A stretch of 64,000 nt of DNA. It comes from Kiritimatiellia bacterium (lineage in GTDB: Bacteria; Verrucomicrobiota; Kiritimatiellia; JAAZAB01). The stretch covers positions 160,001-224,000 of the forward strand of contig JAXGPF010000003.1 of the NCBI GenBank assembly GCA_040767085.1, written 5' to 3'. Positions 42,026 to 62,988 of the stretch are shown one piece after another. The notes below the pieces were generated by a model. It did not search any database. It was not told where the DNA came from and saw nothing but the letters and a program-made list of their open reading frames with translations. The position numbers and the translations under genes are program-made. The number at the start of each line of letters is the position of its first letter. The stretch's first letter is position 1.

Positions 42026-42042
42026 AAACGACAGGTTTGGAC

Positions 42043-43608
42043 ATGGAACAAATATTCGTCAGTAGTGTGCAGAAAGAACTTCAGACGGAGCGGATTGCCG
42101 TGCGGGACTTCGTGCGTGGGAACGACTTGTTGCGGCAGTTCTTCAAGGTGTTTTTGTTCGAGGACCTGCCTCCTGCGGATCGGCGCGCGGATGACGTGTA
42201 CTTGGAGCAAGTCAAGGCAAGTCCGATCTACCTGGGGCTCTTCGGCCATGAGTATGGGCGTGCTAACACAGCGGGGATCTCCGCCACGGAGCAGGAGTTC
42301 GACTGCGCCACCCGGCTGCGCAAACGGCGGCTCATCCTGGTCGAGGGACGGGATGACAAAAATCGCGAGCCGAAGATGGCGGCGCTGATCCGGCGGGCGG
42401 GCGACGAGTTGGTCCGCCGGCGGTTCGAGAACACCGACGAACTGCTGCGCCTGCTGTACGGTAGCTTAATTCAATACCTGCAGGACCGCGGATTCGTGGC
42501 CGCGAAGGATTTTGACGCGGCGCCGTGCGAGAACGCGACCCTTAACGACATCTCGGTGGTGAACGTTCGTCGGTTCATCGAAAAGGCGCGGGCCGAACGC
42601 AAGTATGCTCTGCCGTTGGAGACCGCGCCCGAGCAGGCGCTGGCGCACCTGAACCTGCTCGCGGGTCGGATTCCGTCGAGGGGCGCGGTCCTGCTCTTCA
42701 GCGAGCGGCCTGAGCGGTTCATGCCGTCGGCGGAAGTTACCTGTCTGCATTTCCACGGCACCGAGGTGGCCAAGCCGATCCCGAGCCAGCAGGTGTATCG
42801 AGGTCCCTTGTTCGAGGTGGTGGACAAGGCGGTTGATTTCGTCATGGACCGCGTGGCGCGGCGTGTGGAGCCGGGCCAGGCGTCGGTGGCCAGCACCGTG
42901 ACCTATGAGGTGCCGCACGGCGTGATCCGCGAAGCAGTTGTGAACGCGGTGGCCCATCGCAACTATGCATCGAAGGCGGCGGTGCAGGTGATGGTGTTCG
43001 CTGACCGGATCGAGGTATGGAATCCGGGCGGCCTGCCCGAGAACCTAACGGTAGAGGAACTCCATCGCCCACACCATTCGGTTCCTCGCAACCGATTGAT
43101 CTGCGAGCCTCTCTATTTGGCACACTACATCGAGCGGGCGGGTACGGGCACGCTGGATATGATCCGGCTGTGTCGCGAGGCCGACCTGCCTGAACCGGAG
43201 TTCCGGCATGAAGGAGAACGATTCGTGGTCGTGCTCTGGCGGGACTGGCTGACGGATGCGGTTTTAGCGGGACTGGAGTTGAATGAGAGGCAACGGCAGG
43301 TACTTACCGTGATCAAGAGGGATGGCAGGATCACAAATGCCGTCTACCAGAGAGTCGCGAATGCCAGTCGGCCAACGGCGAAGCGCGACTTGGAGGATTT
43401 GGTTGCGAAGGGGGTTGTGGCACCGGCAGGGGCGGGACGCGGCGCCCGCTACGAGTTGCTCCGGAAACGGCTCACAAATGGCTCAAACGGCTCATCCGAG
43501 TTCAAAACAGGAAATGGCTCACAAATGGCTCACAGAGCAACAACGGGGACTCATCACAGACCCCTCAAAAAAGGGGACGCCAGAAGACCAAAAGAGGTAG
43601 AATCATGA
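42043..43608 (+). CDS. DUF4062 + HATPase_c_4 (RecG-C-like) + wHTH protein
   Basis: IFVSSVQKEL..ER, YLGLFG.EYG, SATEQE; REAVVNAVAHRNY, NPGGLP, ERAGTG; ITNAVY..TAKRDLEDLV. Confidence 0.8.
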   Translation: MEQIFVSSVQKELQTERIAVRDFVRGNDLLRQFFKVFLFEDLPPADRRADDVYLEQVKASPIYLGLFGHEYGRANTAGISATEQEFDCATRLRKRRLILVEGRDDKNREPKMAALIRRAGDELVRRRFENTDELLRLLYGSLIQYLQDRGFVAAKDFDAAPCENATLNDISVVNVRRFIEKARAERKYALPLETAPEQALAHLNLLAGRIPSRGAVLLFSERPERFMPSAEVTCLHFHGTEVAKPIPSQQVYRGPLFEVVDKAVDFVMDRVARRVEPGQASVASTVTYEVPHGVIREAVVNAVAHRNYASKAAVQVMVFADRIEVWNPGGLPENLTVEELHRPHHSVPRNRLICEPLYLAHYIERAGTGTLDMIRLCREADLPEPEFRHEGERFVVVLWRDWLTDAVLAGLELNERQRQVLTVIKRDGRITNAVYQRVANASRPTAKRDLEDLVAKGVVAPAGAGRGARYELLRKRLTNGSNGSSEFKTGNGSQMAHRATTGTHHRPLKKGDARRPKEVES

Positions 43609-43896: not shown

Positions 43897-46746
43897 ATGA
43901 CTACACCCAAGCCCTGGATTGAATCGGTCCGCCTGCACCCCGACGTGCTCAAGGAAAACGCCGATACTGACATCTTCGCCCTGGATCTCGGCCCTCTGGC
44001 CGACGGGTCCGGCACGGTTGCGTCGGTGTACCGTGATGCCGAGTCCTTTTTCCGGGCGTCCTACGTGACAGCCGGGTTGAAGTCGCTCCTCGATGAGGTT
44101 CTTAAACGGCTGTCAGGCAAGGGCGGCGCGCCTGTGCTCAAACTCATGACGCCTTTCGGCGGCGGCAAGTCCCACACGATGGCAGCCCTGCTGCATGCGT
44201 CGCGCGACCGCAAGGCGCTCGACGTGCTGCCCGAAGCCAAGGGACTTGCCAGCCCGACCGACGTGCGTGTCGCTGTGGTGGACGGACAGTTCTTCAACGC
44301 CCAGCAAGGCAAAGAGGCCGATGGCGTCCGCGTGCAGACACTTTGGGGTTGGCTCGCGTTGAAACTTGGTGGGAAGGCCGGCTATGAAACCATGCGCGCC
44401 AATGACGAGGCGCGGGTGTCGCCCGGCGGCGACGACCTCTTGAAGCTCTTTGGGGACAAACCGAACCTGATTCTGCTCGACGAGGCGCTGGAGTATTTGA
44501 TCAACGCTGGCGGAGTGAAGGTTCTGAAGACCGATCTTCGGGAGCAGACGCTGAACTTCCTGAAGGAACTGTCTGTTGCCGTTGCCAATGCCCCTCGGAC
44601 TGCGCTGGTCATGGCGTTGCCATCGAGCAAACCAGGCGAGACTCTGCACCACTTCCAGTTGCTACAAACCCTGGACCACTTCATCGGACGCAAGGATTCT
44701 CTTCGCGAACCCGTGGAACAGGACGAGGTGTTCAGGGTTATTCAACGACGATTGCTGGAGAAGATGCCGGATGACGAGGTGGCGGGGCTGGCCGCGTCGG
44801 CTTACCAGGAGCTTTTCACGCAGATGCGGAAGGCATACGCGGCAAACCCGGCGGAAGAACAGCAAGCCGGTGAAGAGGGTATTCAACTCCGGGACCGGAT
44901 GCGGATGGCCTATCCGTTCCATCCGGCCATCCTCGACTTGATGCGCCAACGCTGGGCATCCTTGCCGGAATACCAGCGCACGCGGGGCGCCCTGCGCTTC
45001 CTGGCGGCCTGTCTGCGGGCGCACCACAAGGCGGGTAAGAGCGGCGTCGTTCTTGGCCCTGGTGACGTAATGCTTGCCGACCACGAGGTCCGGCGCGCCA
45101 TCATAAAGGAACTCGGCCTGATGAACCGGTTCGACGCCGTGTTCCAATCGGACCTTGTGGGCGCAAACTCGACTGCCGGGCGGATTGACAAACTCCGCGC
45201 CAAGTCCAACCCTGCCGAAATTGGCAAGAATGTTGCCCAGCGACTTGCGTCTGCGATCTTCCTCTACTCCTTCGGCGGGTTGCGGCGAGAGGGTGCGGGC
45301 TCAACGGAAGTCCTCCCTCCCGGCGTGTCGGAGGCCGATCTGCTTGCCGGATGTGTGGGACCCGATCTCGACAGTCTGACGGCGAAGGCGTGCCTGTCGG
45401 AACTCAAGCAGTCTTGTCTGTACCTGCACTTCGACGGCGTGCGCTACTGCTTCAAGCAGGACCCCAACGTCACGTTGCTGATCGAGCAGGAAGCCGATGC
45501 GGTGGCACGAGATGAGAGCCTCGTCACTACGCAAATCAGGACGATGCTCGAAGAGCGGCTGGCGGGGCATCATGGTGCCATCGCCTGGCCTGCGGCCTCA
45601 GGCGAGATCCCCGACGAGCAGCCACGTTTCCAAATCGCCTATCTTCCCCTCTCGTTCAGCGGGTTGTCGGCGAAGGCACGGGACGCCGCGGCGCTCGATC
45701 TGGTCGAGAAATACGGCGGCACCCCCCGCAAGTACCGGAATGGCCTCGCGCTGGCGATCCCGGCAACAGACCAAGCAGAAAGTCTGCGACGGGAAGTCCG
45801 ATACCTCAGCGCGGTGGAAAGGGTCAGCAAGGCGGCCAAGAAGCATAATCTGACCAAGGAACAGGCCGACGAACTACGGGAACGGAAGGCCACACATGGC
45901 AGTGCCGTCGAGTCCGCTTTCGGAAAACTGTACCCCGAGGTCTGGCTCCCGAAGCAGGAACAAGGGAATATCGGCTTCGAGAAGATCACGGTTGGCGGAC
46001 GCCCTCTTCAAACGACCGTGAACGCGCAGCACCTTGCGATGGTTTTCGAACGGAACATGGAACTGCTGACTCAAGTCCAACCTCGCGTCTTCTCCAAGTT
46101 GAACCCCGTCAAGGTTGTGGAACTCTTTAAACTGGGCGAAGAAGATCCGCCGAAGATGGGCATTCGATGCAGTGACATTGTGAGCGGGTTCTACTCGTTC
46201 CTTGGCTTTACCCGGCTCACGACCAAGGAGATCGTGCAGGCTGCCATTGCTCGCGGCGTTCAGGAAGGTGTTTTCGGGTACTTCACCGGTTCAGCCCCGA
46301 CGATGGACGCTGGTGGGAAGTACCAAGTCGCGCGGAGCAAGGTGCGGTTTGAGGTTCCACTTGCCGCGGATGAGGTTGACCTCGAGTCCGGTTTCATCAT
46401 GCTGCCAGCGGTAATCCCCGCCGATATGTCTGCCGGAGACCCCGCGCAGGCGGGGGCGGCCCCGATCTCAGGTACCACTCTACCGCCAGGACCGACTCCG
46501 CCTCCTGTACATGGAACCGGACCAGGCCCGATGCCGCCGCCACCGCCGACGGAGAACTACGTCCAGTTGGAATTTACCGCCAACCGGGACCAACTCTTCA
46601 CCGCATGGAACGCCATTGCCAACCTGGCCGACATGGCCGGCACGGTGAAAGTCAATATTACCGCCGAATCCAACAAAGGTTTTGACAAGAGCAAACTTCA
46701 AAACGGCGTCTTGGAACCGTTACGGGAGGCAGACCTGATCTCATAA
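43897..46746 (+). CDS. DUF499 family ATPase
   Basis: LHPDV..FALDL, TPFGGGKSH (Walker A), LILLDE (Walker B), AYPFHP, QRTRGALR. Confidence 0.88.
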   Translation: MTTPKPWIESVRLHPDVLKENADTDIFALDLGPLADGSGTVASVYRDAESFFRASYVTAGLKSLLDEVLKRLSGKGGAPVLKLMTPFGGGKSHTMAALLHASRDRKALDVLPEAKGLASPTDVRVAVVDGQFFNAQQGKEADGVRVQTLWGWLALKLGGKAGYETMRANDEARVSPGGDDLLKLFGDKPNLILLDEALEYLINAGGVKVLKTDLREQTLNFLKELSVAVANAPRTALVMALPSSKPGETLHHFQLLQTLDHFIGRKDSLREPVEQDEVFRVIQRRLLEKMPDDEVAGLAASAYQELFTQMRKAYAANPAEEQQAGEEGIQLRDRMRMAYPFHPAILDLMRQRWASLPEYQRTRGALRFLAACLRAHHKAGKSGVVLGPGDVMLADHEVRRAIIKELGLMNRFDAVFQSDLVGANSTAGRIDKLRAKSNPAEIGKNVAQRLASAIFLYSFGGLRREGAGSTEVLPPGVSEADLLAGCVGPDLDSLTAKACLSELKQSCLYLHFDGVRYCFKQDPNVTLLIEQEADAVARDESLVTTQIRTMLEERLAGHHGAIAWPAASGEIPDEQPRFQIAYLPLSFSGLSAKARDAAALDLVEKYGGTPRKYRNGLALAIPATDQAESLRREVRYLSAVERVSKAAKKHNLTKEQADELRERKATHGSAVESAFGKLYPEVWLPKQEQGNIGFEKITVGGRPLQTTVNAQHLAMVFERNMELLTQVQPRVFSKLNPVKVVELFKLGEEDPPKMGIRCSDIVSGFYSFLGFTRLTTKEIVQAAIARGVQEGVFGYFTGSAPTMDAGGKYQVARSKVRFEVPLAADEVDLESGFIMLPAVIPADMSAGDPAQAGAAPISGTTLPPGPTPPPVHGTGPGPMPPPPPTENYVQLEFTANRDQLFTAWNAIANLADMAGTVKVNITAESNKGFDKSKLQNGVLEPLREADLIS

Positions 46747-47208: not shown

Positions 47209-48291
47209 ATGGCGCTTTGGAAAATTGGCGGCAACAAACCCCTAAAAGTAAAACAGACACACTTGCCTCAGGAAAAACTATTGGAGGAACATCTTGAAAA
47301 TTGGATTCAGATGGAACCAACCTTGTTGGGTGAGCCTCTTTTAATTATAGGCCGGCAAGTCATAATCCCCGATACCAAGGACAGATTGGACCTGCTCGCT
47401 CTGGACCCACAAGGTCAAGCCGTTATTATTGAGCTTAAACGCGGCAAGATTAAAGACCCGGTTGACATTCAAGCGCTTCGATACGCCAGCTACATTTCAA
47501 AATGGAAATTTGATCAATTTGAAAGCGTAGCACGTAACTTTTTCGGAAAATCGGGCGACTCGGAATTTAACTTTAACGAAGTTTTCGAAACTTTCTGCCA
47601 GGAATCCGGTTCTGATGAAGTCCCGGACTTAAACGAAGACCAACGGGTAATTATCGTTGGTTCTTCCGTGCGGGACAAGCTTGGTAGCGTCGCTTTATGG
47701 CTTAGAGATCATAATATTGACATCAAACTCATAGAGGTTACAGCCTATAAGGAAGGTGAAACAGTTTTTATCGAGCCCAATGTCATTGTTCCGCTTCCTG
47801 TCAGTAGATTTGCTAAAGTAGGGAAAGGGCCTACTAAAGGCACAGCGGCCTGGCAAACAGATGGGCAAACTTGGCATCTTGAAAAACGATGCAGCCCAAA
47901 AACAAAAGAGATGTTAATGGTGTTCGACAAAGACATCCGAGAAGCTCTTCCTGTTGATGGTCCACATTGGGATCAGAAACAATATGTTGCTTATCGCAAA
48001 AACAATTATAATTGGTTGTGTATCCATACTCTGCCAAAAACGCTGATTTTTGATTTTAATGTGAAAGCCGGCACGTTTAAGTCCGATATTCTTGCCAAGA
48101 CTTTGGGTGTCGTGAAATTCGATAAAGATGAAACTATGTCGGAAAAACTGAACCTGCCAAGTTCTGTTACTGTCCGCAACAGAAACGAAACGCGCGATCG
48201 TATTCGTCTTCGCGTGAAAGCTGATTTTGATCTCAAATCAAAAACATTTATCCAGTTTATGACCCAGGCATTTGAATTATGCCCGAAGTAA
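47209..48291 (+). CDS. NucS/DUF91-like PD-(D/E)xK endonuclease with C-terminal DUF5655-like domain
   Basis: E..LE.WI, RLDLLALD..G..VIIELKRG...QALRY; AAGGAG RBS. Confidence 0.75.
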   Translation: MALWKIGGNKPLKVKQTHLPQEKLLEEHLENWIQMEPTLLGEPLLIIGRQVIIPDTKDRLDLLALDPQGQAVIIELKRGKIKDPVDIQALRYASYISKWKFDQFESVARNFFGKSGDSEFNFNEVFETFCQESGSDEVPDLNEDQRVIIVGSSVRDKLGSVALWLRDHNIDIKLIEVTAYKEGETVFIEPNVIVPLPVSRFAKVGKGPTKGTAAWQTDGQTWHLEKRCSPKTKEMLMVFDKDIREALPVDGPHWDQKQYVAYRKNNYNWLCIHTLPKTLIFDFNVKAGTFKSDILAKTLGVVKFDKDETMSEKLNLPSSVTVRNRNETRDRIRLRVKADFDLKSKTFIQFMTQAFELCPK

Positions 48292-49418: not shown

Positions 49419-51023
49419 ATGGCCGCAGCAACAGATCAAAATATCGGCATGACAGTGTTCGAACTGCAATCGTTTGAATCCTGGCAAAATCGGATAGAAG
49501 CGGCCGCACAATCCGCCGGCGCCGGCATCACGCGCAAGGGGGCCGGTTGCCAGCTCTGGATGCCGAACCAGTTACTTCCCTTGCGCAAAACCAACTTGCA
49601 TTATGCCGATGGCGTTAAAATTTTCCGGGAATGGCTTGGCCCACGCCGCAACGCATTAGCCATTATCCCTCATCGCGTCTATTTTGAACCCGGCGCAAAT
49701 ACCCCCAGTATCAAGCCGGAACGGATTTTGATTGAAGGCGCACGTCCGGCATTGCCCAGCCCGGACAAACGAATCAGCTCATGTTTGGAATGGGCCGGGA
49801 TTTTATCAAAACATATTGATGGATTTGGTCCTGACCCTATCACGGTCGGACGAGTTCGGCATGATTTACACAAATCAACGCAATTGATTTTTGGCGGCGG
49901 CGCAGTTGTCACACCCGGTTCTAAAATCAGTTTGGCACTGATGAGCCACGGAGGCTATTCCACGCCTGCCCGGCTTCAGATTGAACTCGTGGCGCCCTCC
50001 GCCGCCGCCGGCAAAACAAAAACATATCAAACACTTTTGGCAAATGCCTTGAAGCGCTGTAAATGCCACGGCGTGATCTCGATGTTGACTTACGACAAAT
50101 TGCTGACACGCTTACAATCCGGAACGCCGGTAGCGACGCCCGGCACTTGTATTCTGCTCGCTGTAACCGGCAAAAAAGGCCTGCCGCTGGCCCCGGAATC
50201 CGAGACGCTGATAAATCTCATGGCTAATTTCAACATCCCGTTTCGCATGTTCTCCGTTGACAATCCGGCGCTGAACTGGTCGGCTTTGGATCAAGCCGGA
50301 TCGTTGATTACCGGTGCGGGCGGCATTCCATTCATCACCAAATTACCCTGGCCGGATGATATTGGGGAGCCATTCATTCTGGGAGTGGATGTTGGGCACC
50401 CGCCGACAGGCGAGGAAAGCCAGGTTGTCATTAGTTTAATGGATCATCAAGGTGTTTTGCTGGGGAGTTGGCGCCAATCCCAGCCGCGTGATGAGACAAT
50501 TCACACCGAAACGCTGCAAAATGGATTGACGTGGGCGCTTGAAAAAGCACGGTCAAATATTGCAAACGCAACCCCATCATTCCTGGTGCTGCGCGATGGC
50601 AGGTTGCATAAAGGCGAAAACCCCACATTTTACAGCCAGATACTGGGGCCAAAGACAACATTGATTGAATTTTCCAAACACAACACGCCTGAAATGTTCA
50701 TTATGGGTGCATGCCCGGCATCCGCCAAAGCCGGAACAGAGTGCCTTTTAACCGGTAGTTCCACACCATTTATCACTCCGGTGTCAGCGCGCATGAGCAG
50801 TGATTTATCCCGGACATTCAAAATCAACATGCCACCGGCATGGGATGGCCTGGGGCTTGGAATTGACAGAGTCAGCGAGATTGTGGTAGGATTATCTTAT
50901 ACTTCGGGACTCGGGTTAGCGCCACACGCATTACCCGGCCCAATTTACTGGGCGGACGGCATTGCCGCCATTTGCGAGCACAACCATCAATTTGCGGGGC
51001 AGAATATAATGGAGGGAAGATGA
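49419..51023 (+). CDS. Prokaryotic Argonaute (L2-MID-PIWI), 534 aa, putative DEDD catalytic tetrad
   Basis: LIFGGG/GYSTP L2 linker, AGGIPF, ILGVDVGH (D324), RDETI (E359), VLRDGR (D393), EFSK, LPGPIYWADG (D513). Confidence 0.8.
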   Translation: MAAATDQNIGMTVFELQSFESWQNRIEAAAQSAGAGITRKGAGCQLWMPNQLLPLRKTNLHYADGVKIFREWLGPRRNALAIIPHRVYFEPGANTPSIKPERILIEGARPALPSPDKRISSCLEWAGILSKHIDGFGPDPITVGRVRHDLHKSTQLIFGGGAVVTPGSKISLALMSHGGYSTPARLQIELVAPSAAAGKTKTYQTLLANALKRCKCHGVISMLTYDKLLTRLQSGTPVATPGTCILLAVTGKKGLPLAPESETLINLMANFNIPFRMFSVDNPALNWSALDQAGSLITGAGGIPFITKLPWPDDIGEPFILGVDVGHPPTGEESQVVISLMDHQGVLLGSWRQSQPRDETIHTETLQNGLTWALEKARSNIANATPSFLVLRDGRLHKGENPTFYSQILGPKTTLIEFSKHNTPEMFIMGACPASAKAGTECLLTGSSTPFITPVSARMSSDLSRTFKINMPPAWDGLGLGIDRVSEIVVGLSYTSGLGLAPHALPGPIYWADGIAAICEHNHQFAGQNIMEGR

Positions 51024-51048: not shown

Positions 51049-52557
51049 ATGACACAAGTGCGGATAAATAACTTTAAATGTTTTGAAGAGGCTATTGTGC
51101 CGTTGCGCCGCTTGACCTTTATTTATGGACAAAACAGTTCCGGTAAAAGCACGATTTTTCAGGCAATTAATCTGATCCGGCTGGTCATTATGCAACTTAA
51201 TAAAAAAGAGAGTAGATACAGCAAAAACAAGGAACAAGACAAGTCGCGCGAAGATGAAGATATCGGAATGGATGCTTGGAAACGGATCCCTTGGTTTCGC
51301 GGTGGCATTTCAGCCATGCAACGGGACAAAAACGATCCCATTAAAATTGGCTTTACATTGAAATTGGAAGGAGATGGCACAGAAGGAAGCACCTATATTA
51401 CCACAGATATGTCTGTTGGTAATAAGTGGGATTTAGGAAAACACGGCAATTCCCTGCCGGACAAAATTGTTTTTGGCTTTCAATATGGCAAACTTGATGC
51501 GTTCCGCGACAAGGATAACAAATATTTAGATTTAACGATCACGATAAACAATCGCGTGCCAGAAAACCAACAAAGCGTTTTTAGCCGGCAATTCGGCTTT
51601 GTGCAAGTGTCACCGACCCTGTTGGATTGGTTTTGCAGGGAATATAGTCCCGCAAGCGAGCAAATATTCCGGGATTATTTTAATAGCCCATTACCCTTGA
51701 ATTGGGGCGAGGTGCCCTTTTTTAAATCCTTTAACAAAAAGCCTAAATATCCCAATAATGATCATGCGTTTAATAAGGCCTACAAATGGGTTAATGGTTC
51801 GCTTGAACGCGCGTGGGGAGAAATAGAGGATTATCTTAAACCAGCACTCTTGATGGGGTTTTATTCCGGACATATATCCGCCGATGAACATTATATAGGG
51901 CACGATATTCGAAATACTAACGTAAGATTTCATTTAAAAAAAGAATTTGATGATTTCCTAAATAATGAAAAGGTTATAAACCAGGTAAACGAAGCTCTCA
52001 ACCTTCTGGATACTCCACATCGTCTGGATTCAAAGAAAGGCATTCTTGATCTGCGCAAGCAAACATCTGAAAAAGGGAGCGTTTTGACGGAAGTTGGTTA
52101 TGGTATCCAATACCTTGTCCCGAGGCTTTTGTTGCTTTTTGGCGGAGAGCATCCACTATGCATGATCGAGGAGCCAGAAGCACATGTGCATCCGCGTTTA
52201 CAAGCCAAGCTTGGTTCATTGTTTTTAAAACAATCAGCATCTGCTGATATGATGCGGCAACTTATAATAGAAAGTCATAGTGAAAATCTTATTTTGCAAA
52301 TTAAACGCAATATTCATGATATGGCTGAAGCGGATGCAGAAACAGCGAAAAAATGGGCTGATAACATTTTGGCGCTTTACGTTGATTACTCACAGGACAC
52401 TGCAACGCCAGATATTGAAGCCGACGCGGAAAAGCCACAGGCAAACGTTGAGGCAACTCCCCGGATATCATACATCCGAATTGACAGCGAGGGTAATTTT
52501 ATGGATTATTGGCCTAAAGGATTCTTCCCTGAACGTCAAGAAAACCTTTACTACTGA
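51049..52557 (+). CDS. ABC/AAA_15-type ATPase with DUF3696-like C-terminus
   Basis: INNFKCF, YGQNSSGKST, VGYGIQYLVP, IEEPEAHVHP, IESHSE, IDSEG...WPKGFF. Confidence 0.88.
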   Translation: MTQVRINNFKCFEEAIVPLRRLTFIYGQNSSGKSTIFQAINLIRLVIMQLNKKESRYSKNKEQDKSREDEDIGMDAWKRIPWFRGGISAMQRDKNDPIKIGFTLKLEGDGTEGSTYITTDMSVGNKWDLGKHGNSLPDKIVFGFQYGKLDAFRDKDNKYLDLTITINNRVPENQQSVFSRQFGFVQVSPTLLDWFCREYSPASEQIFRDYFNSPLPLNWGEVPFFKSFNKKPKYPNNDHAFNKAYKWVNGSLERAWGEIEDYLKPALLMGFYSGHISADEHYIGHDIRNTNVRFHLKKEFDDFLNNEKVINQVNEALNLLDTPHRLDSKKGILDLRKQTSEKGSVLTEVGYGIQYLVPRLLLLFGGEHPLCMIEEPEAHVHPRLQAKLGSLFLKQSASADMMRQLIIESHSENLILQIKRNIHDMAEADAETAKKWADNILALYVDYSQDTATPDIEADAEKPQANVEATPRISYIRIDSEGNFMDYWPKGFFPERQENLYY

Positions 52558-52564
52558 TTTTGCT

Positions 52565-53752
52565 ATGCTCAATTATTGCACCATAGACCCATTTCTCGTT
52601 ACGATGGCGAGAACACCAACAATCCCCTCATCGGGTAACAATATACAAATATCTACTACTTCGGAACCAGCTCCCTCGTCTACTGTCCCCAGACAGGTTG
52701 GTCACAGTTCAATCCGATATTTTCTGAAGAGAGTTGCCAGCCGGCACATTTTGTGCGACTTTTTCCTGGGAGTGAGTGGATCCGGAACGTGTAAATATCG
52801 AAAATATTTTGAGGACATAGTTTTTGCCGGTGAAAATCATTTTGCCGTCTACTGGCGGGAATTTTCTTTGGCTCGACATTTTGAGCGATTAAAAACAGAT
52901 TTTACGAATTTCCGTGATAAGGATCGCCTTGCGAAAATATGCCCGGATGTTTGCCCAAAATCATCTGCGGGTGCTGATGACTGGGGCAACTGGGCCATGA
53001 AAATGGGCTACCTGTTGGCAGGATGCGCCGCCGACGATATAACAATAATTATTGCGCACCATAAGACGGTTGAAATGCTGAATGCGCTACTTAACCATTT
53101 TAAATGTGCGCTTACCCCTGAAACAAGCGCTTATATTGAAAAGTATCGGCGAAACTGCGTAACCGTAGAGAACCAAGCTGAAGCAAGCGGCTTGAAGTTG
53201 AGCGGCAACTTGGAGGTCCTCGAAAATTCGTGGTTTTTGCTTTCAAGCGTGGAACGGTTTGACCGCCGGATAAATCTTTCAATAGGCCTAAATTTAGCGG
53301 GAATACCGGTGACCGAGTTTTTAAAATTGTTAAACCCTATTCGCCAATGCTTTCCGCATGTCTACGCAATACAATCCTCCAAGCCACCAAATAAAACCTT
53401 GGCTTTATGGAAACAAAACAATTTTAATATCAATATAATTACCACTGATAGTTTACCAAAAGAGCATAAAGGGCTTTGGCATGATCGGTTTATTGTATTT
53501 GCTTCACATCCTCGAGAGCAGGGCATGCGATCACCACACCGGTTTGTAGCGTTGGTATTTTCAGCGCCATTTGAGCAGATATTTTATGTGCCTGAACAAC
53601 ATTTTATGCGCCATAATACTTTTTATTTGCGCCAAGGTACTTGCCTTTTGCGCTGTGACAGTGATTGTTCTAATACTCCAGGGTCTCATGAAAATATAGC
53701 AAGCTTTCTTGCAAATACTTCAGCTACGCTCCCCCCTTTATCTGAACCATGA
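52565..53752 (+). CDS. Hypothetical protein with C-terminal HDRF motif (possible PLD-like nuclease)
   Basis: ATG 7 nt after the ATPase stop; WHDRFIVF; the ORF-track start at 52280 overlaps the ATPase and is rejected. Confidence 0.55.
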   Translation: MLNYCTIDPFLVTMARTPTIPSSGNNIQISTTSEPAPSSTVPRQVGHSSIRYFLKRVASRHILCDFFLGVSGSGTCKYRKYFEDIVFAGENHFAVYWREFSLARHFERLKTDFTNFRDKDRLAKICPDVCPKSSAGADDWGNWAMKMGYLLAGCAADDITIIIAHHKTVEMLNALLNHFKCALTPETSAYIEKYRRNCVTVENQAEASGLKLSGNLEVLENSWFLLSSVERFDRRINLSIGLNLAGIPVTEFLKLLNPIRQCFPHVYAIQSSKPPNKTLALWKQNNFNINIITTDSLPKEHKGLWHDRFIVFASHPREQGMRSPHRFVALVFSAPFEQIFYVPEQHFMRHNTFYLRQGTCLLRCDSDCSNTPGSHENIASFLANTSATLPPLSEP

Positions 53753-55233
53753 AGACAAACGCTATGCCTGTCTCAAACAAAGTATCGTGTGGCATCGGAA
53801 ACTATCCTGATGCTTTATTACGGCTATCTCAACAGCATCAGCCTTTTTGCGATTGGCTCTTGCTCGGACGTTACATTCTTCTGGGAGACGATGGAATTTC
53901 CAATGATGAGCGCAAGGATATCAAGCGGACGAAAGAATATCAACAATTTGCCAATATGTTTTTTGATTTAATCCAGAATATCGAGCGTAATACTCTTGTT
54001 ATTAACTCCGAAACCGCAGACATCCTGACTGGTCTTGCGGCATTTTATGTTTCTTTACGATGTGTTGTGTCGTACAAAAAGAATGTCATGATCAAGGCCA
54101 TGCAATACAACATATTGTTGTATAATTCTATAATATCGGCAATGAAGAGAAACAAAATACACTCATCTATATTTGCCGAAAACATAGTCGCTGGATGTGA
54201 AATTGTGCTCAAGGCAACCGCTAATGACAAGAAGAAAACCCCAGAAGCGCTGGATGCCGGCGTTGATCTGTTGGGTAAATTAATGGAAAGAGTTCCAGGT
54301 GCAACGCCGCTGGGTGACGCCATATTGCGTTATATACGTGATTGGCAGGCGCTGGGCTCCATTGAGGATTCCTGGCTTGAACAAAAACGTGATCAGGCTT
54401 TGTTGCGTTATGTAGGGATAGACGACAACTATTTAAGCAAATATGAAGAATTCAAGGCATGGACGAATTATCACCCTGATGATAATGGTGCAGCAAAAAG
54501 ACTTTTCTTTTTTGCTAAACCTTTAGTTGAAGTGTTTTGCCGGGAAAAACGTTATGAAGACGCCGCTAAAGTATGTGTTGATATTTATAATTTGCACATT
54601 CTTTCAGACACATACAAGCAAGCCATGTTTTGCTTGTTTTACGACTCTTTAACCTTGGATTTGTCTAACGCCAAATGTGAGATCAACCTCGCCCTAAATG
54701 CGCTTATAATTATTTTTGACAAACTAAAACCGGCGGATAATTTTGTTTCAGCCCATTTTGCTGAATTAAAATTATGGGCTGCTATTGGACATATTCAGGC
54801 AAGACGTTCAAAAGACAACGCATCCATTATTAAAGATTTGCCAGAACCCTTGCCCATATCTGAACATGCTCAAAATAAAATTGCCTGGGAAATTTATCGC
54901 CGTTGCAAGCTTTGTATAAAAACTGACCCAATAATGGTTATTGACATGCTTGAACTATATGCTCATTTATCGGAAATAGAAAAGCCGTCTTTGCTTCATT
55001 CCATGATGTTGCAATACGCAACACGTGTTGGTTCATCTTGGACTGGTTTTATTAAATTTATGCGTACACGAGATATGGCTACTTTCCGCCCGGAGGATTT
55101 CAAGACGACAGTTTATGGCAATCGCACATATAACAGTTTGGTTGATAACACTATAAAATGCCTATATCAAACAATAAAACATCAAAAATGGCGTATTATG
55201 GAATCGGCAAGACCCACCGTCAAGGCAATATAG
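53749..55233 (+). CDS. Alpha-helical/TPR-like protein; N-terminal half of a split TPR/OB-fold protein
   Basis: ATGA overlap with the upstream gene; PSLLHS...FIKF...FRPEDF...YNSL recalled from TPR+OB (DUF7017-like) proteins. Confidence 0.6.
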   Translation: MKTNAMPVSNKVSCGIGNYPDALLRLSQQHQPFCDWLLLGRYILLGDDGISNDERKDIKRTKEYQQFANMFFDLIQNIERNTLVINSETADILTGLAAFYVSLRCVVSYKKNVMIKAMQYNILLYNSIISAMKRNKIHSSIFAENIVAGCEIVLKATANDKKKTPEALDAGVDLLGKLMERVPGATPLGDAILRYIRDWQALGSIEDSWLEQKRDQALLRYVGIDDNYLSKYEEFKAWTNYHPDDNGAAKRLFFFAKPLVEVFCREKRYEDAAKVCVDIYNLHILSDTYKQAMFCLFYDSLTLDLSNAKCEINLALNALIIIFDKLKPADNFVSAHFAELKLWAAIGHIQARRSKDNASIIKDLPEPLPISEHAQNKIAWEIYRRCKLCIKTDPIMVIDMLELYAHLSEIEKPSLLHSMMLQYATRVGSSWTGFIKFMRTRDMATFRPEDFKTTVYGNRTYNSLVDNTIKCLYQTIKHQKWRIMESARPTVKAI

Positions 55234-55239
55234 GCCGTA

Positions 55240-56699
55240 TTGGACTATCCCCAAAATATCCTGTGGGATTTTGCGCGGATAGTGTTATTTTCTAAGAAAG
55301 TGAGTGAAAAACGGATTTTTCTGACCATCTGGAAAGTGAAATAGTGGTCTCCAACTGGAAATCCCGTATAATTGGGGTTGAACCAACCAAGAAGGAGACC
55401 ACCGGAATGAATAATAGTCAGACGGCATTCAAATTGCGATCTCAACTTTTAAAATATTTGGGGATATTTTCACCCCATTTTTCCAAACCAGCATTGGCTT
55501 TTCTTGGTGACATGCTCTATGGGATCCAGGCATCCAAAGATATCAAGCTGAGTTGCATTGGCAGGGGCCTGGACGAGGTGATTTCGCTCAAGAAAACCGA
55601 AGAGCGATTAAGCCGGAATCTGGGATGTGAGGGGCTGGCTCAGAGGGTATCGGATTGTTTGGCGTGTGAAGGCGCCAGGCACATAGGGAATGACACCTTG
55701 ATTGTGATAGATCCGACCGATATTCGGAAGCTCTACGCCCGGAAAATGCCATATTTGGCAAAAGTGCGAGACGGGAGCAGCGGCGAGATCGGCAACGGGT
55801 ATCATTGCGGTGTTGCAGTGGCTTGCGAAAGCGGCGGACGCAGTATAGTCCCTTTGCATCTGCGCCTATGGTCGAGCACCGCGCCTGATTTCAAAAGTGA
55901 AAACGATGAGATTGAACAAATCGTCAGCACTATCTGCGCGGGTGCAAAACGACGCGGGATTTACGTTGTGGACCGCGGCGGCGACCGTGACAAGCTGTTT
56001 AATGTGTTAATTGACAGACGCTTGCGATTCATTGTGCGTTTGATTGGCCACCGCCATCTGTTGTGGAGAAAACGCCCCATCCTGGCTGAAAAGCTAGTTG
56101 GTAAATGCCGGATTTCTCACGTTGAAACCATCCGTCGTGAAACTGCCGAAGGTGAAAAAATTTACCGGATTGAATACGGTGCAATTAATGTGTTTCTGCC
56201 GGAACATCCCGATAAACCATTGCGCATGGTCGTTGTGAAGGGATTTGGAGCAAAGCCCATGATGCTCCTGACGGACTTGGCCGGTGGAGATTCCCGGAAA
56301 GGTCTCTGGCAGGTCATTGAAGGATACCTGAGTCGCTGGCGGGTCGAAGATGCGATTCGCTACATCAAGCAAAGCTATCGCCTTGAGGACATCCGCCTGA
56401 TGGATTACACGCGGCTTCGCAACATGATGGCCATGCTGCTGGCCACTGTTTTCTTTGCTTCCGTGTGGCTCGGCAAATCTTTACGCAAAAGCATTCTGGT
56501 CGGCAACATCACCCGCGTTTCCAAGCGACTTTTCGGTGTAGTGGAGTTCCATTATTACGCTATCGCTGACGGCATTGCCGCCTTGTTGCGCCGTTTCGGA
56601 AAATGGCACGGCGCCTGGAATGGCCCCGCCCGAAACACTGTCTCACACCAATTGGAATTAGCCTTGTTTGATTCAGGATAAAAAATGGGGATAGTCCAA
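55240..56699 (+). mobile_element. Complete IS4 family insertion sequence, 1460 bp
   Basis: Perfect 14-bp TIR TTGGACTATCCCCA; 13-bp target duplication AATATAGGCCGTA (55227-55239 and 56700-56712). Confidence 0.95.
55407..56681 (+). CDS. IS4 family DDE transposase
   Basis: IVIDPTD, VVDRGGD, YLSRWRVEDAIRYIK (YREK signature); AAGGAG RBS. Confidence 0.92.
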   Translation: MNNSQTAFKLRSQLLKYLGIFSPHFSKPALAFLGDMLYGIQASKDIKLSCIGRGLDEVISLKKTEERLSRNLGCEGLAQRVSDCLACEGARHIGNDTLIVIDPTDIRKLYARKMPYLAKVRDGSSGEIGNGYHCGVAVACESGGRSIVPLHLRLWSSTAPDFKSENDEIEQIVSTICAGAKRRGIYVVDRGGDRDKLFNVLIDRRLRFIVRLIGHRHLLWRKRPILAEKLVGKCRISHVETIRRETAEGEKIYRIEYGAINVFLPEHPDKPLRMVVVKGFGAKPMMLLTDLAGGDSRKGLWQVIEGYLSRWRVEDAIRYIKQSYRLEDIRLMDYTRLRNMMAMLLATVFFASVWLGKSLRKSILVGNITRVSKRLFGVVEFHYYAIADGIAALLRRFGKWHGAWNGPARNTVSHQLELALFDSG

Positions 56700-56872
56700 A
56701 ATATAGGCCGTAAAGTATACGGAAGCACTTGATGAAGCATCCGTAGAGCTATAACCATAATACACCCACTCCCGTATAGACGGGGGTGGGTGATTTTTAA
56801 AGAGATCTCTTTGCTTGCTCTTGTATAGTTTAGCCTTCGTAATTGGTATTGCCAAATATTCAGGATATTAAG

Positions 56873-58147
56873 ATGGATAATGAATCAAAAACCACTGCGA
56901 AGAAGGATGACGCAGAACATCGCCTTGCGGAGTTGCATAACACGCAAAAAGTAAAGAATACCGGTGACGCGCCTTCAAAAGCCGGAAATGATGACTTCGA
57001 TATAGAGATCAAAAAACAGACCGCCGATACTGAAGAAGATTACCAGGCGCTAATTGACGCATACGAAGACGAATGCGCCCCAGTTGATGAATTGGATTGC
57101 CCGGACGATAGCACAGACGATATTTCTGATTTGTCTTTCGCGCTCGATTTTGTCCAACGCTATTACAAGCAGTGTTCACAACAAACATACGCGGCATATT
57201 ACTACGCAAAACTGCTTTTATTCGCTGATCATAAAAATCAGGCACAAACAGTGTTGCTTGAAGACGCGATTAGTCTTTCCAACAAATATTGGTTTTGGAC
57301 AACGCTCGCTGATACTTTCCAAAACAATGACGACAAAAAACGCCAGGCATGTCTATGCAAGGCGATATTGACAGCCCGGCCCGAAGACGCAAAATATCTA
57401 AATCCTTTGCGCAGGGATTTGCGCGACATATTTAAAGACAACCCAGAATATAACACTGAATCCGACAATTTACCGCTTTATCAGAAATACGCTATTCCAG
57501 CCGATGCAATCGCGACTACAACTCTTAATTGGTTGCCGGCTGTTGTGTTGGGCGTCAAGGATGGAAGCAATATCCGCGTATTATTTCGACAAGATGATAT
57601 GTATTTGTGCGCGAAAGGCACACTAAACGACAACAAATGGTCACACCTTAAACGCGGCGCTTCTATTAGCGTAAAAATCACGGGGAACGCACCTGACATC
57701 ATGGTTCTTTGCATTAAAATACGACGTGCATCAGACTGGAGTATTTTGCCATGGGAGTTTGCAGTTGTTGTGCAAAAATATTCAGCTCGCAAAAGCGTAA
57801 TATTGGCTTTAGTAAAGGGGAAAACACTGATTGTGTCCTCGCGGATATGGCGGGAAGCGGTGAATTGGGAATTAGGCGACATACTGCAAATTAAAATCTT
57901 GCGCGCGGATGGCGAGGAAATAATTGTCGCCTCGAAAATATCACATAAAACCCCCGATTTTGTAAAAAAGACAACCAGTGTCGTTTTGCAAATTAATAAT
58001 GAAGGATGCGCTTGGGTTGATGATGATACTTTTCTGCCGCGCAGACTGACCGCATAGCTTGGTTTAATGAAAGGCGACAAGGTAAGCCTGACAGCGGTTG
58101 AAACCGCGCAAAACAAGTGGGAAACTATTCAAGCCGATAAAAATTGA
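56873..58147 (+). CDS. Acidic linker + TPR + OB-fold-like protein (C-terminal half), with in-frame TAG at 58055-58057
   Basis: YYYAKLL..A, YWFWTTLAD, ACLCKAI TPR; beta-rich C-terminus; the frame continues 29 codons past TAG (LGLMKGDKVSLTAV...) to TGA 58147. Confidence 0.6.
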
Positions 58148-58151
58148 TTTT

Positions 58152-58260
58152 GAGACGCTGTAGAGGTGTGTTTGAGGCCGATGAATGCAATTGCTCGGCC
58201 GGTTATTACGGGTCAGTATGACCCAATGTCGATTCGATGTTAAATCCTCTGCAGCGTCTC
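58152..58260 (+). ncRNA. Candidate structured ncRNA associated with the RT
   Basis: 15-bp closing stem GAGACGCTGTAGAGG / CCTCTGCAGCGTCTC (one U-G pair on + strand) enclosing hairpins GGCCGA..TCGGCC and GGGTCA-GTA-TGACCC. Confidence 0.65.
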
Positions 58261-58268
58261 TTTATTTT

Positions 58269-59987
58269 ATGAGTGAATTGATCGCCAGCGTAACATTGCA
58301 TAAAGTTGCTAATATTCTGATAGGGTTGCGCCTAAAGGATATGCGCGCGCGCCATGATTGCCTTTTTTATTATCAAATCAGTGATGCGGCGCCTTCCGAA
58401 GAGGCCATGCGCGAGTCCGGCGCAGCGAATTATTTGCCGCCACGCCGGCAATGGATACGTCCTGCCCGAGCGGACAGAGCCGGTTTGAATCACGATGCTG
58501 TCGTGCGCAAAGGGATATGGAAAACAATAGCCACACATTTGCGTGGTGGCACGCTCGACAGCACCCTCTGGGGACAACAACTTCTTTCTTTACACGCTGA
58601 AATACAGGAAGCGTTTAATGCGCCTGAAAACACTGTGTTTACACCACCTGACGTTTTGTTAATAAAAAAAGCTGAAACCGGCAAGTATCGCATAATGGCG
58701 CCCTGCGCAAACATAAAGGAGCGTATAATCAGTGGTATTCTGGCGCGCTATTTTGAAGATTTAATTGAATCAGTATTGGATGATTCGTGTTATTCCTTCC
58801 GCATGAACGGCCAAACTCTCCACGACGCAATTTTGAATCTACAGACATATAGCCAAAACAACACCGACAAAATGCTGTATGTTGCAGAATGCGACTTGCG
58901 TGGGTTTTTTGACAGTCTATGCCATGATGTTGCCATTGATGCCGTAAAATATTTGGCTTCTATTCGCCACATAACCATTGATCCCGGAGCCATGGTTTTG
59001 CTGAATTCACTTTTGCGCTCATATTCTTTTCCGGGTTATGCGTTACCTAAAGCACTTGAAAAATTAAAAGATAATACGACAGGTTGCATTGACTGGTTGT
59101 CTCCACAAGAGCGCAATAAAATATATGGCAAAATTGCAGATACCGCCATAGGTATCCCGCAGGGAAATCCGATTTCTCCTGTTTTGGCAAATGCAGCATT
59201 AACTTTTGCGGACAAACAAGTTAAATCCGTATTGGGAACCGAAGGCTTTTACGCACGCTATTGTGATGATATAATTCTTTTACATCCTGACAGAAAAATA
59301 TGTGATTCAGGCTTGAAAGCTTATTATCACGCCATTACAAAACTTCGTCTGCCGGCACACCCAGCGGAGATTGTTGTAAAATACAGCAAATCTCATTACA
59401 ATAAAAAATCCCGCAAACCTTACCCTTGGGGTGACGATAAATCCATGGAAAAGGCTATGCCGTGGATACAATTTGTTGGGTATCAACTGCACAGGGACGG
59501 AATAATTAGAATTCGCAAACAAAGTATAAATAATCAAAAAATGGCAATAAACAAAGTCGTTGCTACAGCTCGGAAGATTGTTCACAAATCTAAAAAAAAC
59601 AATATTCCGTTGAAACTGGACCCGAAAAAAATATATTGCAAAGTGATAATGCGCCTTGTTCGCGCAGGGCTTGGCGACCGCCGGCCTAAAGCAGGCACAC
59701 ATCCGATCGCTGAGCCATGCTGGATTGACGCATTCCCTCTGATCGAAAGGAATCCATGGACAGAAAAGCAAATGCGGGAATTGGATCGCCATAGAGAGAT
59801 TGCATCGCGTAAATTTAAATATTGGCTCGTAAATAATGACAATTTTGTCGAAAACAATGAGTTTTCTGGCCGAAATAAAGAAAAACGCCCTGAACCATTT
59901 TATGGTGCCCCATACAGTTATTATTGCGCGTTGGATAGAGAAAAGAACAGAATCAGGGATTTTAATGCAAATTATGGCAATATTTAA
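58269..59987 (+). CDS. Reverse transcriptase of unassigned (UG/DRT-like) class, 572 aa
   Basis: IKK...KYR, CYSFR, ECDLRGFFDSL, GIPQGNPISPVLAN, YARYCDDII, FVGY; start set at ATG 58269, after the hairpin. Confidence 0.9.
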   Translation: MSELIASVTLHKVANILIGLRLKDMRARHDCLFYYQISDAAPSEEAMRESGAANYLPPRRQWIRPARADRAGLNHDAVVRKGIWKTIATHLRGGTLDSTLWGQQLLSLHAEIQEAFNAPENTVFTPPDVLLIKKAETGKYRIMAPCANIKERIISGILARYFEDLIESVLDDSCYSFRMNGQTLHDAILNLQTYSQNNTDKMLYVAECDLRGFFDSLCHDVAIDAVKYLASIRHITIDPGAMVLLNSLLRSYSFPGYALPKALEKLKDNTTGCIDWLSPQERNKIYGKIADTAIGIPQGNPISPVLANAALTFADKQVKSVLGTEGFYARYCDDIILLHPDRKICDSGLKAYYHAITKLRLPAHPAEIVVKYSKSHYNKKSRKPYPWGDDKSMEKAMPWIQFVGYQLHRDGIIRIRKQSINNQKMAINKVVATARKIVHKSKKNNIPLKLDPKKIYCKVIMRLVRAGLGDRRPKAGTHPIAEPCWIDAFPLIERNPWTEKQMRELDRHREIASRKFKYWLVNNDNFVENNEFSGRNKEKRPEPFYGAPYSYYCALDREKNRIRDFNANYGNI

Positions 59988-60748: not shown

Positions 60749-60782
60749 GGCGGTTCCTTTCTACCCGGCAACTACGCCTGTA

Positions 60783-61133
60783 TCACCATTTTCCATCGCG
60801 GACCTCCCTGATCACACGCAAAACGGCGTGATCCGGCATGTCCTTCAATTCCCGGATGATTTCGGCAAACAGGCGCGGGCGTTTCGTTATGATTTCGCGG
60901 AGGTCGGATGACACCTTGCCGGCCATGGCCAGCAGGAAGTCGGGGTCCTCCTGAAGCGCCACCGCCAGGCGCCGGATTGTGGCCTCGGACGGTGGGGCAG
61001 CTATATTCCGTTCAATTTTGCTTAAATATGATGGTTCCAAGCCAATCCGGGCAGCCACTTTACGGACAGTGTAGGTCGGTCCGTTTTCCGACAATTTTTC
61101 TCTTTTATCACGAATATAGTTGCCAAAATTCAT
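60783..61133 (-). CDS. XRE family HTH transcriptional regulator
   Basis: FGNYIR..R...VRKVAARIGLEPSYLSKIER..PPSE. Confidence 0.9.
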   Translation of the reverse strand: MNFGNYIRDKREKLSENGPTYTVRKVAARIGLEPSYLSKIERNIAAPPSEATIRRLAVALQEDPDFLLAMAGKVSSDLREIITKRPRLFAEIIRELKDMPDHAVLRVIREVRDGKW

Positions 61134-62981: not shown

Positions 62982-62988
62982 AGGTGGT

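Follow-up and report, generated by a model that had tools for sequence, protein, structure and literature searches.

A conserved structured RNA directly upstream of a UG39-group reverse transcriptase in a Kiritimatiellia bacterium: a probable two-part module

The 64-kb stretch of DNA analysed here (the window) originates from a Kiritimatiellia bacterium (GCA_040767085.1, contig JAXGPF010000003.1, positions 160,001-224,000, forward) and contains a reverse transcriptase (RT) gene preceded by a compact predicted RNA. The RT is a member of UG39, a Class 2 UG/Abi group, and the RNA upstream of it is a conserved, covarying feature of the UG39 family at this position. Because the fold is real, conserved and covarying at this site in the family, the best reading of positions 58152-59987 is a two-part module, in which the UG39 RT and a cognate structured RNA, located directly 5' on the same strand, would work in a manner similar to DRT9, DRT2 and DRT10; we consider this reading probable, if well short of certain. 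An earlier note on this DNA had proposed a new defence module of an RT and a noncoding RNA (ncRNA). The RT-ncRNA part of that proposal stands as the best reading, but the word "new" requires revision, since UG39 had already been named and its Class 2 relatives DRT2, DRT9 and DRT10 are known to use an adjacent ncRNA. The two components are the following:

58152..58268, + strand: predicted ncRNA or RT leader, comprising a closing stem (P1), three hairpins and a U-rich tail (folding and covariance model)
58269..59987, + strand: intact RT of the UG39 group, Class 2 UG/Abi, 572 amino acids (PADLOC RT_UG39, Pfam RVT_1)

The 121-nt gap between the upstream reading frame and the RT was originally described as nearly filled by one fold, with a 15-bp closing stem bearing a single U-G wobble and enclosing three hairpins, and folding of 58148-58268 (+) reproduced this description base for base. 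The minimum free energy (MFE) of the segment is -53.0 kcal/mol, compared with -29.4 ± 3.7 kcal/mol for 200 dinucleotide shuffles (z -6.39), none of which (0 of 200) folded as well. The antisense fold of the same segment is less stable in absolute terms (-44.1 kcal/mol). The predicted parts of the RNA are listed below, where L numbers denote homologous loci and A13 an alignment of their RNA elements, both described further on:

58152..58166, + strand: 5' arm of P1, forming 15 bp with the 3' arm, the sole non-Watson-Crick pair being U58161-G58251 (folding)
58176..58200, + strand: hairpin A, preceded by the conserved junction UUUGAG and aligning with the second hairpin of L003, L014, L001 and L021 (folding)
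58210..58224, + strand: hairpin B, preceded by the U-rich junction GGUUAUUAC (folding and covariance model)
58225..58241, + strand: hairpin C, the weakest, with G-U pairs; its helix is 68.8% paired across A13 (folding)
58246..58260, + strand: 3' arm of P1 (folding)
58261..58268, + strand: U-rich tail of 8 nt, between P1 and the ATG at 58269 (folding)

With 109 nt, the window element is the shortest that was called; the small first hairpin of L003 and L014 is absent from it, and its hairpins have stems of 6-7 bp. A simple promoter and terminator scan called no promoter just upstream of P1, nor did it call P1 a terminator, the latter because its loop limit is 8 nt. A second in-frame ATG occurs at 58185, inside the fold. 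The ATG at 58269 is nevertheless the likely start of the RT, since relatives align from it; for example, residues 4-561 of the window RT align with residues 4-563 of the 573-residue relative P0002.

The RT, which had been placed in an unassigned class, matches the PADLOC model RT_UG39 over its full length (E 5.7e-114, 380 bits, residues 11-556, profile positions 9-538 of 541), as do all of its aligned relatives. The next-best PADLOC models are Drt2 (2e-25), Drt9 (5.3e-20, partial coverage) and RT_UG17 (6e-18), such that UG39 is the best RT match by about 90 orders of magnitude. In the RT alignment (A1), 36 of 36 sequences match RT_UG39 at E<=1e-30 with no other family at that level, and the window RT possesses all 35 invariant columns. 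Pfam identified RVT_1 alone (residues 132-366) and no fused known domain, as Class 2 requires. The motifs listed in the earlier note (YCDD, PQGNPIS, LPPRRQW, CWIDAF, QMRELDRHR and FYGAPYSYY) are all present in the translation, and by curated cut-offs the enzyme is not a retron, diversity-generating retroelement (DGR) or group II RT, in line with the features that the note had found lacking by eye. The NCBIfam retron RT models scored far under their cut-offs (St85, 39.8 bits versus 235; Ec67, 24 versus 450; TIR-retron, 22.9 versus 600), as did the group II RT/maturase model TIGR04416 (87.8 bits versus 300). A search of 55000-62000 against Rfam gave no family at E<=1, and a search of 56700-63000 for template/variable (TR/VR)-like repeats of a DGR gave none, merely two short repeat pairs of 70-71%. 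Likewise, no Avd-like family was found among the neighbouring ORFs (open reading frames) in the Pfam and family scans. The NCBIfam Drt2 and Drt3a models were also far under their cut-offs, and a Drt9 model was not among the NCBIfam matches listed.

The RT family is small, with 41 clusters at E<=1e-10 in a word-indexed search and 365 representatives at E<=1e-30 among 1.84 billion. The closest relatives (P0002-P0005) share 54, 45, 47 and 45% identity with the window RT, and the remainder about 30%. The long relatives (P0142 and others) exhibit no informative fusion, and a tblastn search against plasmids returned a single match, at 30%. An AlphaFold (AF2) model built from A1 has a pLDDT of 88.9, and its top fold match in the PDB is the DRT9 RT (9vma_A; E 8e-14, TM 0.54/0.61, 554 aligned columns), which ranks ahead of the group II intron RTs and DRT2. 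A sequence-profile search matched both DRT2 (1.8e-22) and DRT9 (3.8e-16). About 20 residues from the C-terminus, the UG39 RTs carry a G-x-P-F/Y-S-Y motif (G in 35/36, P in 28/36, S in 33/36 and Y in 31/36), the last two positions being S550 and Y551 in the window. By analogy with DRT9, this motif fits a candidate priming site and would be compatible with protein priming.

UG39 was named by Mestre et al. 2022 as a Class 2 UG/Abi group split from UG28, i.e., DRT9 (PMC9226505); an earlier name is UG28b (PMC8934634), which in our full-text search occurred in the myRT paper only. The same search gave DRT11 as UG5-nitrilase. Mestre et al. associate UG39 specifically with cluster 64, a gene for a VirE and PriCT-2 protein, and in its available text ncRNAs are described for UG2, UG3+UG8, UG28 and UG27 only (PMC9226505). 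The earlier note had allowed that the RT might fall into a characterised family with a known RNA. UG39 is indeed a classified group, yet not a characterised one, and no published UG39 RNA was found in a full-text literature search, in which figures and most supplements were beyond reach. The tree file of Mestre et al. has no "ncRNA" entry; predicted ncRNAs are shown as dots in their Figure 2, which lay outside the search.

The conservation of the RNA was assessed in homologous loci obtained by a scan of genome contigs. Of the 80 loci recovered, 65 were kept and 15 were dropped, i.e., 12 weak partial matches (L069-L080, E 3e-14 to 4e-11), two with an RT cut at a contig end (L063, L068) and one that lacks upstream DNA (L033). 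The full 232-nt upstream stretch was available in 62 of the 65. In MFE folds, 42 of these 62 contain a multibranch closing helix that is at least 10 bp long and has the end of its 3' arm at -3 to 30 nt before the RT start, compared with 6/52, 10/56, 7/62, 8/62 and 9/53 at other offsets of the same loci and 26 of 186 dinucleotide shuffles. In a test that is independent of folding, the best contiguous long-range helix that ends no more than 45 nt from the start scored at least 10 in 25 of 62 loci versus 7 of 124 shuffles, and in 2-6 of 52-62 loci at control offsets; the helix of the window scores 14.5. The P1 sequences themselves are wholly different between clades.

Covariance models were built from individual elements or groups of them. 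Model R3, which has the L003 element as its sole source, was searched against the entire window without filters and placed its best match at 58149-58269 (+) with 30.5 bits (E 7e-6), the next match scoring 10.8 bits. When run on 13 loci of the window's subclade, R3 found the true upstream sites of L014 (31.1 bits), L001 (24.7) and L021 (19.9), with a weak match in L032. In the reverse direction, the top match of the window model (R1) in 99 kb was the L003 element (17.7 bits, E 0.019), and L021 was matched at E 0.61. With default filters over 729 kb, R1 recovered the window and two marginal matches alone, and the similarity of the RNA at the sequence level is therefore narrow. A Flavobacteriia model (R2), built from 8 of 12 sequences, recovered only the 12 Flavobacteriia elements, L006 and, weakly, L058. 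As a separate observation, L041 has a second RT gene (8170-9966) located 361 nt downstream of its UG39-like RT, and a weak match to the L003 model (8181-8330, 15.7-16.7 bits) lies at the start of this second gene; the arrangement could represent a tandem RT-RNA pair.

Covarying pairs are present in two independent subfamilies. The first alignment (A13) combines the elements of the window, L003, L014, L001 and L021; 93.0% of its cells are paired, compared with 73.6 ± 2.4% after shuffling and 35-52% with slid partners, although the sequences were fitted to the structure of the model, which inflates pairing. In A13, 24 of 41 pairs change on both sides versus 11.3 ± 2.4 in shuffled alignments, and neither value was reached in any of 500 shuffles. 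Within P1, 9 of the 15 pairs are changed on both sides yet still paired. The second alignment (A6) was produced by MAFFT from sequence only, for the 12 Flavobacteriia elements; it is 92.5% paired (84.3% shuffled; 31-47% with slid partners), and 10 of 22 pairs change on both sides (5.5 shuffled; 0 of 500). In addition, a Myxococcota/Acidobacteria trio exhibits compensatory change in 11 of 50 pairs. MAFFT alignments of elements across clades (A2, with 29 sequences and 27% identity, and A3) were unusable for structure and were rejected. The conserved, covarying upstream structure that the earlier note had suggested looking for among homologues is thus borne out by the 42 of 62 loci and by A13 and A6.

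The RT-sense strand folds more stably than the antisense in 43 of 46 elements, by a mean of 7.8 kcal/mol, in a set that was picked on the plus-strand fold and is biased to that extent. Directly after P1, 31 of 45 loci have a U-rich tail, compared with 80 of 450 windows chosen at random and, for neighbouring ORFs, 64 of 212 leaders. At the other end, 12 of 13 Flavobacteriaceae loci have a TAnnTTTG box no more than 45 nt ahead of the P1 5' arm (e.g., L052 5417-5425 and L047 5668-5676), and in 10 of these 12 its end lies 3-5 nt from the start of P1. For all clade-A loci with a P1 call, the box is found in 12 of 24, versus 190 of 5600 background windows. We take this box to be the Bacteroidota -7 promoter element; if so, transcripts in those loci start at P1. 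Three unpaired stretches are conserved within the window's subclade: U-U/C-N-G-A-G before hairpin A, A-U-U-(U/A)-A after hairpin A, and AUCC entering the 3' arm of P1. The conservation of the U-rich junctions is confined to this subclade.

A FastTree phylogeny was constructed for 63 RTs (FastTree support only, with long branches flagged). Seven loci were left out, six with in-frame stops in the ORF call (L002, L011, L015, L025, L030, L039) and one with a short ORF (L050). The survey of neighbouring genes covered 112 upstream ORFs from 59 loci, together with 108 downstream ORFs. In 24 of the 59, a gene for a BT4734-like_N (VirE) protein, with or without PriCT-2 (318-347 amino acids; PADLOC RTasVirE-PriCT2), lies directly upstream, 17 of them on the opposite strand; the published co-occurrence of UG39 with this gene is only 45-46% (PMC8934634). 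These PrimPol-linked loci belong to one Bacteroidota-centred clade, of which they form 23 of 27 rows (support 99). The window is situated in the other clade, in a 17-row subclade (support 96) that contains all five loci linked to TOTE-type genes and all three with a DprA-like (PsyrA/ShosA-like) gene (L021, L024, L032). TOTE stands for TPR, OB, TBP, Effector (PMC12458937).

In the window's branch, the RNA-RT pair directly follows a TOTE-type gene for a TPR/S1-CSD protein. Besides the window, L001, L003, L009 and L014 encode a DUF7017/TPR/S1CSD-TOTE-2 protein of 711-927 amino acids directly upstream on the same strand, and the TOTE-linked loci thereby account for 5 of the 11 in the subclade with upstream data. 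Between the stop of the TOTE gene and P1, the five show anything from an overlap of 27 nt to a gap of 12 nt. The PDC-M16A+B pair of L009 is complete, including the helicase with its TBP-TOTE domain, and the RNA and the RT come directly after it. The partner gene therefore varies by clade, being PrimPol-like, TOTE-type or DprA-like. Downstream of the RT, no family recurs in more than three loci among the 108 ORFs. Two local arrangements were also recorded. L001 carries a second DUF7017/PDC-M16B-like gene (7695-9587) that overlaps the RT stop by 6 nt, and its RT is thus flanked by TOTE-type genes on both sides. In three Kiritimatiellia-type loci (L004, L015, L016), an ADP-ribosylglycohydrolase gene is found downstream of the RT, accompanied in L016 by a NUDIX gene.

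The proposed mechanism follows the characterised Class 2 systems. The RNA would be transcribed from just before P1 or, in the window, perhaps together with the TOTE gene instead, and most transcripts would end at P1 and the U-tail. Acting as a terminator-like 3' end, P1 and the tail would cause the RNA to be made in excess over the RT mRNA, which is consistent with the coverage of the ncRNA reported for UG2 and UG28, more than 1000-fold above that of the RT mRNA (PMC9226505). By analogy, the RNA would serve as a scaffold to which the RT binds, and a short part of its multiloop that is single-stranded, for which the conserved U-rich junctions UUUGAG and UUAUUAC are candidates, may be copied repeatedly into complementary DNA (cDNA). 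Synthesis would probably be primed on the RT itself, at the C-terminal G-x-P-F/Y-S-Y motif (S550/Y551), and the cDNA may then accumulate upon phage infection and halt the cell.

The three recurrent partners all carry domains related to single-stranded DNA (ssDNA), i.e., the S1/CSD OB-fold, PrimPol and DprA-like domains, which suggests an ssDNA product. On this basis, the UG39 RT and its RNA might form the DNA-writing core of modular systems with an interchangeable ssDNA-handling partner, namely TOTE S1/CSD in the window's branch, VirE/PriCT-2 in Bacteroidota and DprA/PsyrA-like proteins elsewhere, and the partner might bind, copy or load the cDNA as its signal or substrate. We offer this extension tentatively and regard it as doubtful; DprA-like and TOTE genes also count as defence modules by themselves, and co-location in islands thus remains a rival explanation of the partner linkage. 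If the extension is true, Class 2 DRTs would be linked mechanistically to TOTE conflict systems, and the TOTE S1/CSD domain would gain a defined ligand.

Several alternatives to the RT-ncRNA module were weighed. The element may be nothing but a cis-acting 5' leader of the RT mRNA, a terminator, attenuator or autoregulation site that limits RT expression, and be neither a template nor a stable separate RNA. P1 stops 8 nt short of the ATG and a U-run comes next, a terminator geometry that speaks against the module; the U-tail is common in the family (31 of 45 loci), no Shine-Dalgarno-like sequence is seen in 58261-58268, and an unpaired motif that would mark a template is not conserved family-wide in the k-mer survey. 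We nevertheless consider an exclusive leader function unlikely, given that the three to six conserved, covarying internal hairpins go far beyond the needs of a terminator. Moreover, among the Class 2 relatives that have been characterised, those that carry a structured RNA 5' of the RT all use it as scaffold and template, as far as the available reports describe them (PMC12483538, PMC12632851, PMC13174585), and the two functions are not exclusive, as the DRT9 RNA likewise ends in a dispensable stem-loop and a U-rich region (PMC12483538).

A retron-like mode of action appears quite improbable. In such a mode, P1 would correspond to the a1/a2 duplex of an msr-msd RNA, and a guanosine adjoining P1 would supply the 2'-OH for priming by the RT, yielding a branched multicopy ssDNA from one hairpin. 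Retron ncRNAs do have a similar layout, in which inverted repeats enclose several hairpins and the whole lies immediately 5' of the RT in the same orientation, and G residues occur at the inner end of the P1 5' arm. Yet the retron RT models are far below their cut-offs while UG39 is a far better match, the nearest fold is that of DRT9 rather than a retron RT, the conserved C-terminal S-Y fits protein priming, and the stems of 6-7 bp in the window leave no long msd-like hairpin. Least credible of all is a fold unrelated to the RT, whether it terminates the upstream TOTE-type gene, is an inverted repeat that arose by chance or marks one end of a small mobile element. Such a fold would explain why the fold begins 4 nt after the TGA of the upstream frame and why z-scores are strong on both strands. 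However, the element accompanies the RT whichever neighbour is present, including the 17 of 24 loci where a PrimPol-like neighbour lies on the opposite strand; it was found in the window by a model from a relative with a different P1 sequence; and in 43 of 46 elements the better fold is that of the RT-sense strand.

A number of observations weigh against the RT-ncRNA module, beyond the inflated pairing in A13 and the selection bias of the strand comparison. The closing-stem criterion was failed by 20 of the 62 loci, although three of these (L039, L047, L052) do have the element according to inspection by eye and model R2. R3 misses L009, L016, L011, L005, L044 and L004 and, with default filters, yielded one weak match (L015) alone in 55 other loci, and R2 misses the window. 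In the k-mer survey of the elements, no unpaired motif is shared family-wide or across clades, and no counterpart of the universal internal U-tract of DRT9 was found. Template use, protein priming and a defence role are steps that we infer from the characterised relatives, and the defence prediction for UG39 itself was graded "inconclusive" by Mestre et al. (PMC9226505). Finally, the TOTE-type neighbour in the window is broken, and the locus may therefore be decaying.

The earlier note overlooked this neighbour: the frame that precedes the RT is part of a decayed TOTE-type gene, the conserved neighbour in this branch. Its remains and the insertion sequence (IS) between them are arranged as follows:

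53749..55233, + strand: N-terminal piece of the TOTE-type gene (PDC-M16B profile, L009 alignment)
55240..56699, + strand: IS element, IS4/IS701-like, between the two TOTE-gene pieces (inverted repeats, DDE transposase)
56843..58147, + strand: C-terminal piece of the TOTE-type TPR/DUF7017/S1-CSD gene, PDC-M16B-like (DUF7017, PDC-M16B)

The N-terminal piece covers positions 108-251 of the PDC-M16B profile and aligns with residues 199-321 of the L009 protein. In the C-terminal piece, the ORF 56843-58057 matches DUF7017 (E 3.9e-15) and PDC-M16B and aligns with residues 317-616 of the L009 protein. The TGA at 58145-58147, which had been given as the stop of this frame, is reached in frame; an in-frame and probably premature TAG at 58055-58057, 30 codons earlier, nonetheless ends the strict ORF at 58057. 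When the TAG is read as X, S1CSD-TOTE-2 is matched across it (E 0.0019, 18.6 bits, under the cut-off of 27), and the original end of the TOTE gene was therefore probably 58147, 4 nt short of P1. The IS has perfect 14-nt terminal inverted repeats (55240-55253 and 56686-56699) and is flanked by a 13-nt direct repeat (55227-55239 and 56700-56712). Its transposase (55344-56681) matches DDE_Tnp_1, with the IS701 and IS4 models below their cut-offs, and the IS has no near match in the plasmid collection. A single ORF cleanly cut by the IS was considered and rejected, because the stop of the N-terminal piece lies inside the duplicated target and stops occur in all three frames of 56713-56842. Even with the IS set aside, 130 nt with stops in every frame lie between the two pieces; the gene is either decayed or naturally split. 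Since it is decayed, the RT-RNA pair of the window may act alone or be a remnant.

In the family scans, no PDC-M16A or TBP-TOTE match was found in the ORFs 51049-52557 and 52280-53752, and no VirE (BT4734-like_N)/PriCT-2 gene among the scanned window ORFs from 38912 to 62676. Pairwise comparison of the ORF 52280-53752 with those that precede the TOTE gene in L001 (2091-3206) and L003 (1928-3097) gave nothing beyond a weak similarity (E 0.04-0.23) in a short "hDRF(I/V)" motif; all three are without a family match, and the motif is at a similar relative position in each. Judging from this motif, the ORFs upstream of the TOTE-type gene might represent a common effector.

Further upstream, the genes at 38912-52557 resemble, in their sequence matches, a defence-island-like run:

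38912..42025: DUF1156 methylase-like gene
41779..43608: DUF4062/HATPase_c_4 gene
43897..46746: DUF499 gene
47209..48291: NucS-like gene
49419..51023: gene for a 534-amino-acid protein with a weak Piwi match
51049..52557: AAA_15/AAA_21 ATPase gene, directly after the Piwi-like gene

The last two could form a pair of the short-Argonaute type. This defence-type setting upstream of the RT counts in favour of the RT-ncRNA module. The guanine-plus-cytosine content falls to 39-52% at 47-60 kb of the window, compared with 55-62% further upstream, and rises again after the RT, which suggests that the RT and its neighbours were horizontally acquired. On the other side of the RT, a 254-amino-acid ORF (59984-60748, - strand) converges on it with a 4-nt overlap of the RT stop and has no Pfam, NCBIfam or PADLOC match; it is followed by a capH-like helix-turn-helix gene (60783-61133, - strand).

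The Class 2 defence RTs each write a different and unexpected DNA from a small RNA: a de novo gene in DRT2, poly-dA in DRT9 and telomere-like repeats in DRT10. UG39 is a catalogued group whose defence role was graded inconclusive, and to it the present analysis adds a conserved RNA with defined ends and stems, a candidate priming motif and a clade-dependent partner. This combination of RNA, priming motif and changing partners renders UG39 directly testable, the predicted product being ssDNA handled by the partner. The RNA of the window, as the most compact called, would be handy for structural work. Should the module turn out to act just as DRT9 does, the gain would be incremental.

Among known systems, DRT9 is the closest. 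Its ncRNA serves as scaffold and template, and its RT primes on its own conserved C-terminal tyrosines to make poly-dA (PMC12483538, PMC12489045). Like DRT9, the UG39 RT is a Class 2 UG/Abi enzyme without a fused known domain, from a group split from UG28 (PMC9226505, PMC8934634); the DRT9 RT is its closest solved fold, aligned over the full length including the N- and C-terminal extensions. In both, the RT is immediately preceded on its own strand by a structured RNA with a U-rich end, and both have conserved hydroxyl residues near the C-terminus, those of DRT9 (Y496/Y498; PMC12489045) matching the UG39 motif in position. Unlike DRT9, the UG39 RT has only 13-15% identity to it in the structural alignment, with E values of 5.3e-20 for the Drt9 model versus 5.7e-114 for UG39. 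The DRT9 RNA, of 188 nt, has six stem-loops and an irregular loop, whereas that of UG39 has one long closing stem around 3-6 hairpins; the former contains a universally conserved internal U4 template, whereas none was found in the UG39 elements by the k-mer survey. The UG39 RNA also diverges fast between clades, in contrast to the UG28 RNA, which is "highly conserved" according to Mestre et al.

DRT2 (UG2) and DRT10 (UG17) are likewise Class 2 RTs whose 5' ncRNA is both scaffold and repeatedly copied template. DRT10 is protein-primed on a serine, and the tandem repeats that it adds are templated by a short loop that a stem delimits (PMC12632851), and the abstract of a 2026 report extends ncRNA-templated polymerisation to Class 2 DRTs in general (PMC13174585). 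As in UG39, the structure of the DRT2 RNA varies between subgroups with little sequence conservation (PMC9226505). They are, however, separate RT groups (Drt2 E 2e-25, RT_UG17 6e-18); the window has no SLATT partner as in DRT10, and there is no evidence in it of the features peculiar to DRT2, namely a de novo gene and a rolling-circle template. Retrons resemble the module in having, ahead of the RT, an RNA with its two ends joined in a long duplex, and differ from it in the failed retron RT models, the nearest fold and the missing long msd hairpin.

Two further systems concern the partner genes. The window RT matches the RT of the PADLOC DRT pair RT_UG39 + RTasVirE-PriCT2 over its full length, whereas the VirE/PriCT-2 gene is absent from its flanks; the window falls in the RT-tree branch without this gene, and neither the PADLOC nor the Mestre definition of UG39, the latter as far as its text is available, includes an RNA component. 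The window pieces match PDC-M16B and DUF7017 of the TOTE/PDC-M16 system, which consists of a RecD-like helicase with a TBP domain and a TPR-DUF7017-S1/CSD protein. PDC-M16 is, however, a two-gene candidate without an RT, and the window has no adjoining PDC-M16A helicase and has the B gene in pieces. No RT linked to TOTE genes was found in the full-text literature search, outside which the original TOTE review lies, and one preprint on DUF7017/PDC-M16/TOTE is silent on RTs. In kind, the combination of a Class 2 RT with a 5' ncRNA is already known; what is new is the RNA of the UG39 group, its architecture and the PrimPol-less, TOTE-linked branch.

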